Shown piece by piece: positions 17,930 through 48,279 of a stretch of DNA of 64,000 nucleotides. The stretch lies in IMG/VR virus record IMGVR_UViG_3300030104_006433, positions 96,545-160,544 of that record. One strand, given 5' to 3'. The position numbers and the translations under genes are program-made. The notes under the pieces are model-generated. The model had not been told where the DNA came from. It did not search any database and saw only the letters and a program-made list of their open reading frames with translations. The stretch comes from a virus. How positions within the stretch are numbered: the first letter of the stretch is position 1; every line of letters starts with the position of its first letter.

Positions 17930-19192
17930 ATGTTTTGGCTAGTAGAAAATAGTGAACAATTCTGGAATTTACACCAGAATGAAGAATATCATAAGGAGGC
18001 TTATATAGAAGTTATTCCCTACTCATACAAAACTCATCCAACAATTACTAAAGTATCTCTTGTATACTTACGTCCTTTAAATGCAAGTAAAGGATACATG
18101 ATATCAATAAACCATAGTGAATCTATGCCGTTAAACAACGAGTATATTGTAAATTTAATTAATAATTATGATATATTGCATGTTTGGGGAAAAAAAGAGT
18201 TTTTGCATTATTTTACGTGTAGAAATGTAAATGACATTTCTTTACTTTGTCCTGAATATGAAATGGAAACTACCAAAGCCCATCAAATTTTACAACAAAG
18301 AACTAAAAATAAGTTGGATATTAACAGAATTATTCCTATCGTTAAACATTATGAGACGTGTGAAAAAAATTATAATAATTTAAAACAATATTTTAATGAA
18401 CCAAACAACACATTTTACAACAACAGAGTACCATTGGTATTCAATGCCATTGAAAGGAATGGAATACAAGTGGATAGAGAACTCTTCAAAGAATATTTCA
18501 ACCAAGATTGGGGAGATAAAGTCTATACACAATATAATTACAGAACAACAACAACAAGACCCTCAAATAGATTTGGAGGAATAAATTTTGCTGCGTTAAA
18601 TAAAGAAAATGGAATACGTAAAACATTTATACCAAAAAATGATAAACTTGTTGAAATCGACATTTCAGCTTATCATCCTACTCTTGCTAGCTCCCTTATT
18701 GATTATAGCTTTGATGATAGAGATATTCATGCCTCATTTGCAAAAATGTATGGGGTGGATTACAAAAAATCTAAAGAATTAACATTTAAACAACTATATG
18801 GTGGGGTATTTGATCAATATAAACATTTAGAATTTTTTCAAAAGATACAAAATTTTATTGACAACTTATGGGATGATTTTCAAACTAAAGGATTTATTGA
18901 ATGTCCTATTTCAAAATATAAATTTGAAAAATCTAAGTTAGATAACATGAATCCACAAAAATTATTCAATTATCTATTACAGAATTTGGAGACAGCTAAA
19001 AATGTTCATATATTATGGGACATAATTAAAATATTAAAAAACAAAGATACAAAATTAGTATTATACACTTATGATGCTTTTCTACTAGATTTTAAACTCA
19101 CAGAAAGAACCACATTAGAACGCATATTAGATGTATTTAAAAAATATAAATTAAAAACAAAAATTACACATGGAACCAGTTATGACTTTTGA
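17930..19192 (+). CDS. Divergent, short family-A DNA polymerase-like protein
   Basis: TTTRPS, motif A EIDISAYHP, motif B KELTFKQLYGG, motif C LYTYDAFL; only 420 aa. Confidence 0.75.
   Translation: MFWLVENSEQFWNLHQNEEYHKEAYIEVIPYSYKTHPTITKVSLVYLRPLNASKGYMISINHSESMPLNNEYIVNLINNYDILHVWGKKEFLHYFTCRNVNDISLLCPEYEMETTKAHQILQQRTKNKLDINRIIPIVKHYETCEKNYNNLKQYFNEPNNTFYNNRVPLVFNAIERNGIQVDRELFKEYFNQDWGDKVYTQYNYRTTTTRPSNRFGGINFAALNKENGIRKTFIPKNDKLVEIDISAYHPTLASSLIDYSFDDRDIHASFAKMYGVDYKKSKELTFKQLYGGVFDQYKHLEFFQKIQNFIDNLWDDFQTKGFIECPISKYKFEKSKLDNMNPQKLFNYLLQNLETAKNVHILWDIIKILKNKDTKLVLYTYDAFLLDFKLTERTTLERILDVFKKYKLKTKITHGTSYDF
18609..18782 (+). CDS. Candidate nested +1-frame small membrane protein inside the polA-like gene
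   Basis: MEYVKHLYQKMINLLKSTFQLIILLLLAPLLIIALMIEIFMPHLQKCMGWITKNLKN; host frame uses CTT/ATC/GTT instead of NTA codons. Confidence 0.35.
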   Translation: MEYVKHLYQKMINLLKSTFQLIILLLLAPLLIIALMIEIFMPHLQKCMGWITKNLKN

Positions 19193-32200: not shown

Positions 32201-32271
32201 TGTCAGGTCGTCTAGAGGCAGGACTCCTGGTTTTGGTCCAGGCAACGGAGGTTCGAATCCTTCCCTGACAA
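32201..32271 (+). tRNA. tRNA-Gln(UUG)
   Basis: Acceptor TGTCAGG/CCTGACA; anticodon arm CCTGG-TTTTGGT-CCAGG; GTTCGAATC T-loop. Confidence 0.92.
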
Positions 32272-32289
32272 CAAAATTCTTTACATAAT

Positions 32290-32361
32290 GCTCCCTTCGT
32301 CTAGGGGTTAGGACGTCAGGTTTTCATCCTGGAAACAGGGGTTCGATTCCCCTAGGGAGTA
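32290..32361 (+). tRNA. tRNA-Glu(UUC)
   Basis: Acceptor GCTCCCT/AGGGAGT; anticodon arm TCAGG-TTTTCAT-CCTGG; GTTCGATTC. Confidence 0.92.
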
Positions 32362-32374
32362 CAATTATTAATTG

Positions 32375-32448
32375 GGGGGATTAGCTCAGCTGGCTAGAGC
32401 GCCTGCCTTGCACGCAGGAGGTCATCGGTTCGACTCCGATATCCTCCA
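32375..32448 (+). tRNA. tRNA-Ala(UGC)
   Basis: GGGGGATTAGCTCAGCTGGCTAGAGCGCCTGCCTTGCACGCAGG...TTCGACTCCGATATCCTCCA. Confidence 0.95.
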
Positions 32449-32464
32449 CTAAAAATTATAAATT

Positions 32465-32835: not shown

Positions 32836-33609
32836 ATGTTAAAAAGAATAAAGGATTACAATAAAGTACTCCCTGTATTAGAATTATATAGGTGTGTACA
32901 ATCAGAAGGGTCAAGATTTGGAAGGCCCACAATAGCAGTAAGAACAACAGGATGTACACATAGATGCTACTTTGGAGAAGGTGGATGGTGTGATTCTTGG
33001 TATACAAGTATTCATCCTGAAAAAGGCACATTTACATTTAATGATATTATCAAAATATATGATGATAATCCTCATGTGAATGAAATGATGCTAACAGGTG
33101 GGTCACCTACTATGCATCCAGCTTTAGTTAATGAATTAACACATTTTGCAAATGAAAGAGATATTCTTATTACAATCGAAACTGAAGGTTCTCATTTTCT
33201 TGAAACTGACCACCCCTTGGATCTTATTAGTCTTAGCCCTAAGTTTTCTAATTCAGTTCCTATGCCCGGGACTACCACTCCTAATGGTGCGTTGGTTGAT
33301 GAAAGGATGGTCAAAGTCCACAACCGACTTAGATTAAATAAAGATGCTATTAGAAAAACACTAGATTATCATAAAGATTATCATTTCAAACCAGTATGGG
33401 ATGGTACAGATGAAAATTTAGAAGAAATAGAAGCTTTTAGAATTGAAATGGAAATTCCAAAATATAAAACTTTTATGATGCCAGCTGGAGATACTAGAGA
33501 AACATTAATTAAAATGTACCCTAAGGTATTTAGATTATGTGAGGAAAAAGGATACAATATGACTGGTAGGGATCATATAATAGCATTTGATACAGAACGA
33601 GGAGTATGA
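32836..33609 (+). CDS. queE: 7-carboxy-7-deazaguanine synthase (radical SAM)
   Basis: QSEG..G.P..VRT.GC..RC...WCDS, LTGG.P, IETEG, LSPK. Confidence 0.92.
   Translation: MLKRIKDYNKVLPVLELYRCVQSEGSRFGRPTIAVRTTGCTHRCYFGEGGWCDSWYTSIHPEKGTFTFNDIIKIYDDNPHVNEMMLTGGSPTMHPALVNELTHFANERDILITIETEGSHFLETDHPLDLISLSPKFSNSVPMPGTTTPNGALVDERMVKVHNRLRLNKDAIRKTLDYHKDYHFKPVWDGTDENLEEIEAFRIEMEIPKYKTFMMPAGDTRETLIKMYPKVFRLCEEKGYNMTGRDHIIAFDTERGV
33152..33337 (+). CDS. Candidate nested +1-frame membrane protein inside queE
   Basis: MKEIFLLQSKLKVLIFLKLTTPWILLVLALSFLIQFLCPGLPLLMVRWLMKGWSKSTTDLD; coincides with a codon-shifted patch. Confidence 0.4.
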   Translation: MKEIFLLQSKLKVLIFLKLTTPWILLVLALSFLIQFLCPGLPLLMVRWLMKGWSKSTTDLD

Positions 33610-35315: not shown

Positions 35316-35443
35316 AACCTATAAAAAAAATAAAGGCTACAATGAAAGAAATTTATGATGCGATGCGTCCAAATGTTTATCGTAACCGAAAAAAATACAC
35401 AAGAAAAAATAAACATAAAAATAAAAGTTATGACAAAAGTTAA
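35312..35443 (+). CDS. Small basic hypothetical protein
   Basis: (L)KPIKKIKATMKEIYDAMRPNVYRNRKKYTRKNKHK...; fills the gap and overlaps both neighbours. Confidence 0.45.
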   Translation: MKPIKKIKATMKEIYDAMRPNVYRNRKKYTRKNKHKNKSYDKS

Positions 35444-36125
35444 AAAAAGAACATTAAATGAGTATAGACAAGTAAAAGATGCTTCTTATACCCCACCAAA
35501 AAAAGGACAAAAATTTGAAATACCAAAATTTGATCCCCAAACAGGAGAACTAAATCCTTATTATTTAGAATTAACAGGAAAAGATAGTTTCAATCAATTA
35601 GAAATACCTTTTGAATTCCAAACTGATAATGTAGACTTTGTAAATGAAGTAGAAGAATTTAATAGAACTTTTGGTAAACCGAATAATTATAAACCAACAA
35701 TACCAGCCAAAAAAGAATGGCAATTTGTATATGATTTTATACTCGAAGAACTTGAAGAATATAAAGAAGCATGCGAGCGAGGTGACATCGTGGAAGTTTT
35801 GGATGCTTTGTGTGATATTACTTACGTTTCCCTTGGGAACGGTGTTATGTTACATGGCCTTAAGGATAAGATTTGGCCCGCGTATCAAGAAGTACAAGAT
35901 TCAAATATGTCAAAATCTTGTAAAACTAAAGAAGAAGCAATCAAAACTGTCTATAAAAGAAGTGAGGAACAAGGTGAGGAATGTCATTTTGAAAAAGTAG
36001 GAGATAGATATGTTGTTTATAGAACAAGAGATAGAAAAGTAATGAAATCAATAAATTACTTTAGACCTGATTTACATCAATTTTTCACACCAGAAGAAAC
36101 TGAAGGAGCAATTAAGAATGTATAA
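35430..36125 (+). CDS. MazG-like / PRA-PH-type nucleotide pyrophosphohydrolase
   Basis: EELEEY...EVLDALCD..YV and SNMSK; start likely 35430 rather than 35355. Confidence 0.8.
   Translation: MTKVKKRTLNEYRQVKDASYTPPKKGQKFEIPKFDPQTGELNPYYLELTGKDSFNQLEIPFEFQTDNVDFVNEVEEFNRTFGKPNNYKPTIPAKKEWQFVYDFILEELEEYKEACERGDIVEVLDALCDITYVSLGNGVMLHGLKDKIWPAYQEVQDSNMSKSCKTKEEAIKTVYKRSEEQGEECHFEKVGDRYVVYRTRDRKVMKSINYFRPDLHQFFTPEETEGAIKNV
35731..36000 (+). CDS. Candidate nested +1-frame single-TM protein inside the MazG-like gene
   Basis: MILYSKNLKNIKKHASEVTSWKFWMLCVILLTFPLGTVLCYMALRIRFGPRIKKYK...; +1 frame open for more than 110 codons. Confidence 0.45.
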   Translation: MILYSKNLKNIKKHASEVTSWKFWMLCVILLTFPLGTVLCYMALRIRFGPRIKKYKIQICQNLVKLKKKQSKLSIKEVRNKVRNVILKK

Positions 36126-42818: not shown

Positions 42819-43153
42819 AATTAATGAGTCCTAAATTACCTAAAAAATAATGCTTATGGAAAATTTAGATATAATTATAGGAACCCTGATTGGATCAGGT
42901 TTAACTGCTTTAGTGGCAATTTTTGTTACTAGGGTTTCAAATCGATTTAAACAGGTAAATGAAGACTTACAAAGTGTAAGTAGAGATCACTCAACTAGTT
43001 TGGATGCTGTGTATGATAGTAATTCAAGAGAAGTTGAGAATATATATAGAGAAATTGATTCTCAAATTAATAAACTAGAATCTAGATTGGTAAAACAATT
43101 TAAAGATTATAATTACAATAAATAATTAACCCAATTTAGGACTCTTAATTTTA
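42816..43153. repeat. About 21-bp inverted repeat bracketing ORF 42850-43125
   Basis: TAAAATTAA(T)GAGTCCTAAATT (42816-42837) and AATTTAGGACTCTTAATTTTA (43133-43153). Confidence 0.8.
42850..43125 (+). CDS. Single-TM coiled-coil small protein
   Basis: N-terminal hydrophobic helix followed by a coiled coil (IDSQINKLESRL). Confidence 0.65.
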   Translation: MLMENLDIIIGTLIGSGLTALVAIFVTRVSNRFKQVNEDLQSVSRDHSTSLDAVYDSNSREVENIYREIDSQINKLESRLVKQFKDYNYNK

Positions 43154-44076
43154 TGAAAGACCACACATTATTAGTAGAAAAATATCGATCTAACACTCTT
43201 GATGAATATGTAGGTAATAACCATATTAAAACCCAAATACAAAAATACTTAGACCAGGATGATATTCAAAACTTCATTTTTTATGGCCCTGCTGGTACAG
43301 GGAAAACTACTCTCGCTAAACTCATTGTTAATAATTTGGACTGCGATTACTTATACATTAACGCTTCTGATGAACGGGGTATCGAAACTATTAGGGATAA
43401 AGTCACCAACTTCTCAAGTACTGCTTCGTTTCGACAGATCAAAGTTGTCATACTCGATGAGGCAGATTTCCTCACAATTCAAGCGCAAGCATCATTAAGA
43501 AATGTAATAGAAACATTTTCTAGGAATACACGTTTTATTATGACGTGTAATTTTATAGAGAGGATAATAGATCCACTACAATCAAGATGCCAAGTACTAA
43601 AAATAGTACCCCCAAGTAAAAAAGAAGTAGCAAAACATTTAAAAGAAATATTAGATACAGAACAAACAAAATTCAAAGTTGAAGCTCTCGTTAACATAGT
43701 TAACACACATCATCCGGATATACGAAAAATGTTAAACACAATTCAGTTATCTACTAAAGATAATGAGTTAGTACTAGATGAATCAATCATAGTATCATCC
43801 AATTATATAAAACAAGTTATAACAGAATTAAAAAACCCAAAAACAGATTATCGAAAGTTAAGACAAATAATTGCTGACTCGGGAGTTAAAGATTTTGAAG
43901 AATTATATAGATCATTATTTGACCAAGCAGGAGAGTATGCTAAAGGTAGAGAGGGTAGTGTAGCTATGATTTTAAATGAACATCAATATCATTCAAATTT
44001 TAGAATTGATAAGGAAATTAATATAGCAAGTGCTTTAGCAAAAATAATAGAAACCAAAAAACCACAAGTAATATGA
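43153..44076 (+). CDS. Clamp loader large subunit (gp44/RFC-like AAA+)
   Basis: VEKYR, GPAGTGKTT, NASDERG, LDEAD, SRC. Confidence 0.95.
   Translation: MKDHTLLVEKYRSNTLDEYVGNNHIKTQIQKYLDQDDIQNFIFYGPAGTGKTTLAKLIVNNLDCDYLYINASDERGIETIRDKVTNFSSTASFRQIKVVILDEADFLTIQAQASLRNVIETFSRNTRFIMTCNFIERIIDPLQSRCQVLKIVPPSKKEVAKHLKEILDTEQTKFKVEALVNIVNTHHPDIRKMLNTIQLSTKDNELVLDESIIVSSNYIKQVITELKNPKTDYRKLRQIIADSGVKDFEELYRSLFDQAGEYAKGREGSVAMILNEHQYHSNFRIDKEINIASALAKIIETKKPQVI
43259..43498 (+). CDS. Candidate nested +1-frame protein inside the clamp loader gene
   Basis: 79 aa with hydrophobic N-half and basic C-end; matches a patch of CTC/ATC/GTC/CGG/TCG codons. Confidence 0.4.
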   Translation: MIFKTSFFMALLVQGKLLSLNSLLIIWTAITYTLTLLMNGVSKLLGIKSPTSQVLLRFDRSKLSYSMRQISSQFKRKHH

Positions 44077-47331: not shown

Positions 47332-48279
47332 ATGCCTAAAATCCCCACCATAGTTAAGGAGATTCAACAATTTCCAAAAAGAGAAGTTAATTATGCTTTT
47401 CAAAAAAATATTTCATATTCACAATATTCAATGTGGAAAAAATGTCCTAAACAGTGGGCATTACAATATAGAGATGGTCATAAAATTTATACTCCAAGTG
47501 TTCATACTGTATTTGGAAAAGCACTACATGAGGCATTTCAACATTATATTCAAGTAATGTATGATAAAAGTGGGGCAGCCGCTGATAGAGAAGACATATT
47601 AGAAATATTAAAAGATAAAATTAGAGAGCATTATCAAGATGAATACAAGAAAAATAATAACCAACATTTCTCAGATCCAGGTGAATTAAGTGAATTTTAT
47701 GAAGATGGGGTTGAAATATTAAATTATTTAAAAAAGAATAGAGGCAAATATTTTTCAAAACGAGGTTGGCACTTAGTTGGAATCGAAACCCCTATCACAA
47801 TGCCTCCAATTTCATCAAATCCTAATGTTTTATTTGTAGGTTATTTAGATATTGTGATGTATAATGATCGAGTTAAGAAATTTAAAATAATAGATATTAA
47901 AACATCTACTAATGGTTGGAAGTTAGATTATGTTAAAAAAGATGAGGACAAACAATTTCAACTCATCCTATACAAAAAATTCTTTGCAGAACAGTTTGGT
48001 GTAGATGAAAAAGATATTGATATTGAGTTTTTTATAACAAGAAGAAAAGTATATGAAGGTGGAGATTACCCACAAAAAAGATTTCAAATGTATTCACCTC
48101 CATCAGGAAAAATTAAAATAGGAAGAGCAACTCAAGCAATAAATGAATTTATAAATGAGTGTTTTAACGGAAATAACCATAATGAAAAAGAAATGTTACC
48201 TAACCCTAGCAAATGGAATTGTACTTTTTGTGCTTTTAAAGAAAACGCAAACTTATGCGGACTAGGCGGTAACCTTTAG
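47332..48279 (+). CDS. PD-(D/E)XK exonuclease (Cas4/AddB-like)
   Basis: SYSQ...CP, G..LHE, GYLD, IIDIKT, QL.LY, C-terminal CTFC...C. Confidence 0.85.
   Translation: MPKIPTIVKEIQQFPKREVNYAFQKNISYSQYSMWKKCPKQWALQYRDGHKIYTPSVHTVFGKALHEAFQHYIQVMYDKSGAAADREDILEILKDKIREHYQDEYKKNNNQHFSDPGELSEFYEDGVEILNYLKKNRGKYFSKRGWHLVGIETPITMPPISSNPNVLFVGYLDIVMYNDRVKKFKIIDIKTSTNGWKLDYVKKDEDKQFQLILYKKFFAEQFGVDEKDIDIEFFITRRKVYEGGDYPQKRFQMYSPPSGKIKIGRATQAINEFINECFNGNNHNEKEMLPNPSKWNCTFCAFKENANLCGLGGNL

Follow-up and report, generated by a model that had tools for sequence, protein, structure and literature searches.

Whether the 81-codon stop-free run in the +1 frame of a phage clamp-loader gene represents a gene in its own right, or only reflects the codons with which the clamp loader happens to be written, is the question raised by this locus. 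The window (the whole stretch of 64,000 nucleotides that was analysed, 29% G+C) is the final 64 kb of a 160.5-kb IMG/VR record. The clamp-loader gene is referred to here as the host gene and the open reading frame within it as the nested ORF. The features that define the overlap are as follows.

43153..44076, + strand: host gene, encoding a 307-aa AAA+ clamp-loader ATPase subunit of the T4 gp44 / RFC small-subunit type (assigned from Pfam, tblastn and motifs)
43250..43252, + strand: TAG stop bounding the +1 run on its 5' side, formed by host TTA-G at codon 33; the boundary is identical in all 27 clade A and A2 sequences
43259..43498, + strand: nested ORF in the +1 frame of the host gene, with an ATG start and 79 aa followed by TAA (recognized from its length against chance and from frame-specific stop avoidance in relatives)
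43285..43311, + strand: host Walker A (GPAGTGKTT, from the translation), overlapped by the nested ORF
43450..43467, + strand: host Walker B (ILDEAD, from the translation), overlapped by the nested ORF
43496..43498, + strand: TAA stop of the nested ORF, formed by host TTA-A at codons 115/116; fixed in clades A and A2, whereas other open clades have it at host codon 118 or 130

The host protein matches the Pfam families AAA (1.7e-18) and DNA_pol3_delta2 (1.4e-11), and a tblastn search among named phages matched it, at 30-40% identity, to clamp-loader genes from cyanophages and T4-like phages. Besides the two Walker motifs, the host translation contains MTCN (the TCN of sensor-1) and QSRC (the SRC arginine finger), which together are the motifs expected of a gp44/RFC-type AAA+ protein. 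Judged by GroEL, the nearest named phage is Flavobacterium phage immuto, whose GroEL gene shares 60% identity and which has a genome of 160 kb and a similar local layout. The marine phage that carries the nested frame probably infects Flavobacteriia.

The nested ORF extends from just upstream of Walker A to just past Walker B. The stop-free run that contains it (43253..43498) stands out from the rest of the host gene, where the second longest +1 run is 30 codons, and its GC3 is 0.35 compared to 0.16 in the remainder of the gene. A first-pass annotation had described a 79-aa nested ORF at 43259-43498 over this part of the clamp loader, flanked by +1 stops, and its description was found to be accurate: the ORF is present with an ATG start in the +1 frame, and the two bounding stops arise from TTA-G and TTA-A at host codons 33 and 115 respectively. 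The list of codons given for the region is also exact, with leucine encoded by CTC, CTC, TTG, TTA (followed by T), CTC and CTC, and valine by GTT or GTC, and the codons TTA, GTA and ATA resume directly outside it.

These codons are uncommon in the phage, as TTA accounts for 74% of the leucine codons in the window and CTC for 1.4%, with GTC at 3.9%. When the same protein is written with the codon usage of the window, 8.9 stops are expected in the +1 frame of the region and none was observed; not one of 200,000 synonymous randomisations of the region was free of stops. A total of 132 long ORFs in the whole 160.5-kb genome were compared in the same manner, and only two of them have a longest +1 run at p<0.001 (0/4000 randomisations in both cases), namely the clamp loader and a MazG-like gene. 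For the clamp loader the longest run of 81 codons compares to a simulated median of 29 (p<0.00025). The nested frame is thus longer than chance allows, as expected of an overprinted gene.

Three scans of IMG/VR yielded 238 loci representing 152 distinct coding sequences, with protein identities to the window of 69-98% in the first scan. The host protein is near-invariant across the overlapped stretch in all 152 relatives. Counts of +1 stops across the region are bimodal: 61 of the 152 sequences have none and most of the others have 3-11. The core of the region (host codons 44-95) is open in 85 of the 152. A tree was built from the flanking parts of the gene only, on which the relatives closest to the window fall into two clades: A, with 23 sequences and a support of 0.99, and A2, with 4 sequences and a support of 0.999. 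Every member of these two flank-defined clades is open with the same ORF boundaries, and the lineages positioned between the two clades on the flank tree form a closed grade with 8-11 stops. A non-conserved frame in relatives had been named by the first-pass annotation as part of the outcome that would count against the ORF; this was not what we observed, since the frame is without a +1 stop in 27/27 sequences of its own clades and in 61/152 overall.

Open frames in other clades differ in extent. Longer versions of 101 codons (from host codon 16 to 118) and 96 codons (ending at codon 130) were found, several partly closed clades retain a core of 56-64 codons, and the ORFs of clade G span codons 41 to 98. 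The region GC3 in open sequences is 0.30 compared to 0.18 elsewhere in the gene, and the corresponding values in closed sequences are 0.17 and 0.18. Sister lineages whose host protein is the same have 5-12 stops and ordinary codons, and in closed lineages with a nearly identical host protein the codons are genome-typical (GC3 0.10-0.17) and 8-11 stops are present. The nested peptides of different open clades are merely 37-48% identical.

The distribution of the two states on the flank tree requires at least 22 changes between open and closed. In closed sequences that occur among open close relatives, the region differs 2-4 times more than the flanks do; an example is the pair L099 and L086, where the difference is 0.44 in the region and 0.09 in the flanks. 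This contrast between region and flanks indicates that the segment is exchanged by recombination and that open and closed alleles co-circulate. Judged from these alignments, the nested element is a discrete allele that is either present or absent among related phages, and the nested frame has evidently been lost or replaced repeatedly, which makes it a non-essential element.

A stop in the +1 frame can arise only where an NTA codon precedes a purine or an NTG codon precedes A. About fourteen leucine, isoleucine and valine positions in the region carry this risk, and at these positions the stop-creating codons are never used in open sequences even though the sites vary among the safe synonyms (CTT, CTC and TTG at codon 101; CTT, CTG, TTG and CTC at codon 54). 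NTA codons are common in the same sequences where a pyrimidine follows: ATA occurs in 18/37 open sequences at codon 42, TTA in 18/37 at codon 67, and the invariant Ile100 of Walker B is ATA in 10/37. As sequences selected beforehand for being open would make such counts partly circular, the tests were carried out on the flank-defined clades and on the region's own tree. Parsimony reconstruction in clades A and A2 gave no stop-creating change among 40 synonymous L/I/V changes before a purine in the region, compared to 50/124 outside the region (Fisher 5e-8). Within the region itself, changes to NTA before a pyrimidine were found in 7/14 cases compared to the 0/40 before a purine (2e-5). The most conservative count, made on the region's own tree, still gave 0/34 stop-creating changes (binomial 3e-8 at p=0.4). 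On the strength of these substitution patterns we conclude that purifying selection holds the +1 frame open, a property by which an overprinted gene is recognized.

Only the +1 frame is cleared of stops. Open alleles have on average no stop in +1, 12.6 in +2 and 12.5 in one of the antisense frames, the last two values being higher than in closed alleles. General avoidance of stop trinucleotides was rejected on the same observation, since stops in the +2 frame are more numerous in open alleles than in closed ones. An antisense gene was also considered and rejected, since the antisense frames carry 3-12 stops and the sole antisense ORF is 42 aa long.

The open frame is not an effect of G+C content. 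Lineages L241 and L176 have a region GC3 of 0.46-0.48 yet contain 8-10 +1 stops; stop avoidance alone predicts a GC3 of 0.18 where 0.28-0.35 is observed; and the counts of W>S and S>W changes are balanced, so that there is no decay of an imported G+C-rich tract. A recent sweep or a decaying import was likewise rejected, because the diversity of the open class equals that of the flanks and because of the same balance of changes. At sites with an invariant residue in clades A and A2, the major codon ends in C or G in 14/67 cases in the region (mean frequency 0.78) compared to 7/107 outside it (0.59), which makes such codons about three times as frequent in the region. Several conserved C- or G-ending codons occupy sites without any risk of a stop, namely AAC at codons 40 and 70, AGG at 81, TTC at 87 and GAG at 103. 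These riskless codons, together with a GC3 above the need of stop avoidance, suggest some constraint at the level of the nested amino acids. As a negative control, a 68-codon +1 run in the gene at 47332..48279 was followed in the same way and is open in just 2/59 relatives. The control run is not conserved, hence the method discriminates between a maintained frame and an incidental one.

Several results do not fit a conventional protein. Synonymous codons diverge no less in the region than in the rest of the gene, with ratios of 0.99, 1.08, 1.10 and 0.73 in open clades and 0.94 and 0.78 in closed ones, and the reduction of synonymous rate across the whole overlap by which overprinted genes can be recognized was not found. 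A scan for synonymous constraint had been proposed as the check on the nested ORF, and its outcome is divided: constraint is evident at specific sites, in the form of the fourteen or so risk sites without stop codons and the rare C/G-ending codons that are kept, but the overall divergence is not reduced. All third codon positions of the host fall on second positions of the nested codons, over a host protein that is near-invariant. In a BLOSUM-based test, a weighted null (z=0.64) gave replacements in the nested frame that were just as conservative as those observed. When four nested peptides were scanned against Pfam and PHROG, only sub-threshold noise was returned, and the ESM Atlas gave no usable lead for the nested peptide. 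A profile search of 5.8 billion proteins found no free-standing homologue, the only matches being four chimeric, frameshifted clamp-loader calls.

Two segments can be distinguished in the predicted product.

43307..43372, + strand: nested residues 17-38 (LLSLNSLLIIWTAITYTLTLLM), a hydrophobic helix and possible membrane segment (maximum KD19 1.76; within the AlphaFold2 helix 2-45, pLDDT 86-94 here)
43385..43495, + strand: nested residues 43-79, a basic, predicted helical tail (net charge of residues 41-79, +8; AlphaFold2 helix 50-78)

The AlphaFold2 model of the nested peptide as a whole consists of these two helices with a pLDDT of 79 and is uninformative on function. The hydrophobic N-half and basic end pointed out by the first-pass annotation do describe the product; as independent support for a gene they do not hold, as stop-free synonymous randomisations of the host give a maximum KD19 of 2.2 +/- 0.5, equal to or stronger than the value observed, and a tail charge of +6. 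Both features are default by-products of the host sequence and therefore provide no argument for function. The peptide contains no cysteine. An identity as a lipoprotein or embedded o-spanin of the Rz1 type was rejected on this ground and because the surrounding gene encodes an AAA+ clamp loader, not an i-spanin.

Two internal ATG codons could serve as the start.

43259..43261, + strand: candidate start ATG no. 1, at host Asp36-Asp37 (GAT-G); ATG in 58/61 fully open relatives
43283..43285, + strand: alternative start ATG no. 2, at host Tyr44-Gly45 (TAT-G); ATG in 73/85 core-open relatives

ATG no. 1 has an A at -3, an upstream sequence with 55% A and almost no predicted structure (MFE -1.2 kcal/mol). 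ATG no. 2 lies eight codons downstream and is the sole usable start in sequences where a stop occupies host codon 41. The Shine-Dalgarno core was found at 6.6% of the gene starts of the phage, compared to a background of 11%, and the leaders are A/T-rich. Ribosomes of the Bacteroidia ignore the Shine-Dalgarno sequence, and initiation is tuned by low structure and an A at -3 (PMC6847099). The start-region features are permissive and not diagnostic, because the host residues Q-D-D dictate most of ATG no. 1 and its context; the same features are present in 44/67 closed sequences. Only marginal differences in initiation context were observed between open and closed alleles, with statistics that ignore phylogeny.

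The original reading of the locus as a genuine nested ORF is supported by the conservation of the frame and by the site-specific synonymous constraint. From the comparative evidence we consider it probable that the 79-codon +1 frame is a translated, overprinted and dispensable accessory gene whose initiation does not involve a Shine-Dalgarno sequence. Translation would begin inside the clamp-loader mRNA, at the AUG at 43259 (or that at 43283), where the A-rich, unstructured upstream region with its A at -3 would suffice by itself, as for every other gene that the phage encodes. The encoded protein is predicted to be small and helical, its N-half hydrophobic and its tail basic; it may act via these gross properties, possibly through association with a membrane, and not via its precise sequence. 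Translation, the choice of start site and the action through gross properties are the parts of this scheme that we infer.

The absence of a fall in synonymous rate and of a bias towards conservative replacements, despite such strong avoidance of stops, would also be expected if the +1 frame were translated and kept open with the peptide itself being irrelevant. What mattered would then be the act of translation or its end, for instance for mRNA stability, for clamp-loader expression or for the release of internally initiated ribosomes, and such a role agrees with the recurrence of the pattern in several further genes of this family of phages. However, rare C/G-ending codons are kept at sites without risk and GC3 is above the need of stop avoidance, the end of the ORF differs by clade (host codons 115, 118, 130 and about 98), and host Met130, the sole nearby restart codon, is leucine in many open sequences. 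Termination-reinitiation at Met130 was rejected for this last reason. We know of no mechanism that needs an open frame independent of the peptide, and we regard this explanation as unlikely. The open frame might alternatively be untranslated and result incidentally from a codon style that certain alleles have in the conserved ATPase core, produced for example by accuracy-driven C-ending codons or by tracts imported through recombination. Many of the enriched codons do end in C (AAC, TAC, ATC, TTC, GTC and CTC), the region is exchanged by recombination as the excess divergence of closed alleles within open clades indicates, and GC3-rich patches also lie over other catalytic cores. A codon style would nevertheless have to account for NTA codons that are common before pyrimidines and absent at all 14 purine-followed sites of the same sequences, for the clearing of the +1 frame only, and for GC3-rich lineages that are closed; in addition, a diversity equal to that of the flanks points to an old allele and not a recent sweep, with no decay of GC3. 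This interpretation is already disfavoured, and we consider it quite improbable.

A further explanation is that a programmed +1 frameshift or transcriptional slippage fuses the first 35-45 residues of the clamp loader to the +1 frame, loosely in the manner of dnaX tau/gamma. A T6 run (TTC ATT TTT TAT G) is indeed present at host codons 41-44 in the window, and three of the public chimeric calls (P0001-P0003) join the host N-terminus to the +1 peptide. The run is not conserved, though, as open sequences have either TTT (20) or TTC (17) at codon 43 and differ at codons 41-42, and P0001-P0003 switch frame at three different positions while P0004 shifts the other way. Because the switch points differ and each is represented by one sequence from one contig, the chimeras fit assembly indels and not recoding. 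Only 10 codons are available for a shift, given the +1 stop at host codon 33, and a product without the P-loop has no evident use. Slippery-site frameshifting in particular was rejected because no conserved slippery motif occurs at the junction, and recoding of any kind at this locus appears highly improbable to us.

Embedded out-of-frame genes are textbook examples of gene overlap in tiny phages and in spanin pairs. In phiX174 and other Microviridae, gene E is embedded out of frame in gene D. Its product is a lysis protein that targets MraY, in a phage whose ssDNA genome measures 5 kb. The nested ORF resembles gene E in being a small ORF that lies wholly within an essential gene, read from the same strand but in a different frame, and that would have originated by overprinting, with a hydrophobic N-terminal helix, a basic C-terminal part and a tolerance of much sequence change. 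Unlike gene E, for which translation and target are proven, it is a predicted gene in a 160-kb dsDNA myovirus-like genome, within a gene for a replication ATPase, and it is dispensable in many relatives. To our knowledge, annotations of large dsDNA phages hardly ever include a gene that is embedded entirely and out of frame in another, and no clamp-loader gene is known to contain one. Our literature search likewise yielded no earlier account of such an overlap in the clamp-loader gene of a phage, and hence no precedent that we could find.

The embedded o-spanins (Rz1 in Rz of lambda and 18.7 in 18.5 of T7; spanin survey PMC6139136) are also fully embedded +1 genes of large dsDNA phages and usually unannotated. 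Rz1-type proteins are lipobox-cysteine lipoproteins encoded inside the gene of the partner i-spanin, whereas the nested peptide lacks cysteine and lies in a gene that has nothing to do with lysis. With dnaX tau/gamma recoding in bacterial clamp loaders (recoding review PMC5009743) the locus shares a second reading frame in a clamp-loader gene. In dnaX, a -1 shift or slippage truncates the protein at a slippery site that is conserved and lies late in the gene; the present locus has no conserved slippery site, and its second frame spans the N-terminal ATPase core with its own AUG. As with the candidate overlapping genes obtained from codon-permutation and synonymous-mutation tests of ORF length (Schlub, Buchmann & Holmes 2018, PMC6188560), the ORF is far longer than synonymous randomisation allows. 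The single-genome test is here extended by 152 relatives, a control within the region and natural loss alleles.

The comparative evidence at this locus is unusually clean, as the same codons are allowed or forbidden by the next base alone, loss alleles occur with an identical host protein, and a negative-control gene is available. If translated, the nested ORF would provide an abundant group of uncultured marine phages with a previously unrecognised accessory protein. A frame that is held open for long with little visible constraint on its amino acids is also a test case for methods that detect overlaps from synonymous rates.

Open +1 frames were also found in other genes of this phage. In the MazG-like gene, the +1 frame at 35653-36000 (115 codons) is open in 64/69 distinct relatives, and in a PolA-like gene two +1 ORFs (18396-18581 and 18609-18779) are open in 31/38 and 35/38 relatives respectively, down to 50% host identity. 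This recurrence implies either several overprinted genes in the phage family or an unrecognised constraint linked to translation. An invariant host protein freezes positions 1 and 3 of the nested codons, and it is possible that unavoidable stops rarely arise for this reason. We tentatively propose, with rather less confidence than we have in the clamp-loader ORF itself, that the phage family might carry a hidden layer of overprinted +1 genes in the best-conserved catalytic cores of its enzymes for replication and nucleotide metabolism (the clamp loader, the MazG-like hydrolase, two ORFs in the PolA-like polymerase and perhaps QueE), in which the frozen host protein would shelter the second frame and initiation independent of Shine-Dalgarno would make internal AUGs usable. 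If the clamp-loader ORF is translated, it suggests, taken with the MazG-like and PolA-like parallels, that translation without Shine-Dalgarno sequences may favour the birth of overprinted genes.

A third +1 ORF in the PolA-like gene (18231-18380) is open in merely 3/38 relatives, and the nested frame in QueE is patchy, being open in 18/61. Within these regions of the MazG-like, PolA-like and QueE genes, the frequency of NTA before a pyrimidine in open sequences is 20-70%. The nested frames of all three genes overlie conserved catalytic cores.

Besides the nested frame of the clamp loader, +1-frame runs were observed in four other genes of the window, one of them serving as a negative control:

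35653-36000, +1-frame run of 115 codons inside the MazG-like gene (35355..36125)
18396-18581 and 18609-18779, two neighbouring +1 ORFs inside the PolA-like gene (17930..19192)
33152-33334, +1 ORF inside queE (32836..33609)
47354-47553, +1 run of 68 codons inside the gene at 47332..48279, negative control

The run in the MazG-like gene is the longest +1 run in the genome, and its length was reached by none of 4000 randomisations. This frame was found to be free of stops in 64 of the 69 distinct IMG/VR relatives, with the identity of the host gene ranging from 60 to 82%. The third-position G+C content of the gene is about 0.34 within the region of the run compared to about 0.20 outside it. NTA, which gives rise to a +1 stop when it precedes a purine and is harmless before a pyrimidine, makes up 340 of 642 cases before pyrimidines in this region and is entirely absent before purines. 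The control run was open in just two of 59 relatives and is therefore a chance ORF.

Both neighbouring ORFs in the PolA-like gene are widely open among 38 distinct relatives (31 for 18396-18581 and 35 for 18609-18779), down to a host-gene identity of 50%, while a third flagged ORF in this gene (18231-18380) was open in just three of the 38. The frame in queE is patchy, being open in 18 of 61 relatives, and its region contains nine to eleven stops in relatives of 90-96% identity; together these observations suggest the existence of open and closed alleles, resembling the situation in the clamp loader.

In the clamp-loader gene, the segment from Walker A to Walker B (codons 36-113) was observed to be a recombination mosaic when the relatives L099, L091, L093, L121, L097 and L128 were compared with their nearest relatives, and phages that are close elsewhere diverge two to four times as much at synonymous sites within this segment as they do in its flanks. 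The clade typified by the relative L057 (e.g., L057:1489-2403) has an open +1 frame of 101 codons starting at host codon 16. As this clade lacks both upstream stops found in the window's clade and has additional in-frame AUGs, the N-terminus of the predicted nested product may be longer there.

Four public-database proteins matched by the profile search with the nested peptide (P0001-P0004) are chimeras of the clamp loader and its +1 frame, with differing frame-switch positions. These are probably assembly indels, and the open +1 frame would have let gene-calling programs continue across them.

The tRNA genes of the whole genome are confined to one site:

32201-32449, genes for three ordinary tRNAs (Gln-TTG, Glu-TTC and Ala-TGC)

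None of these three has an unusual anticodon loop hinting at quadruplet decoding. Of the 61 long ORFs in the window, 60 are on the + strand. Shine-Dalgarno motifs are essentially absent from the gene starts (6.6% against a background of 11%), and the leaders are A/T-rich. The GroEL shares 60% identity with its counterpart in the 160 kb Flavobacterium phage vB_FspM_immuto, which points to a bacterial host among the Bacteroidota.
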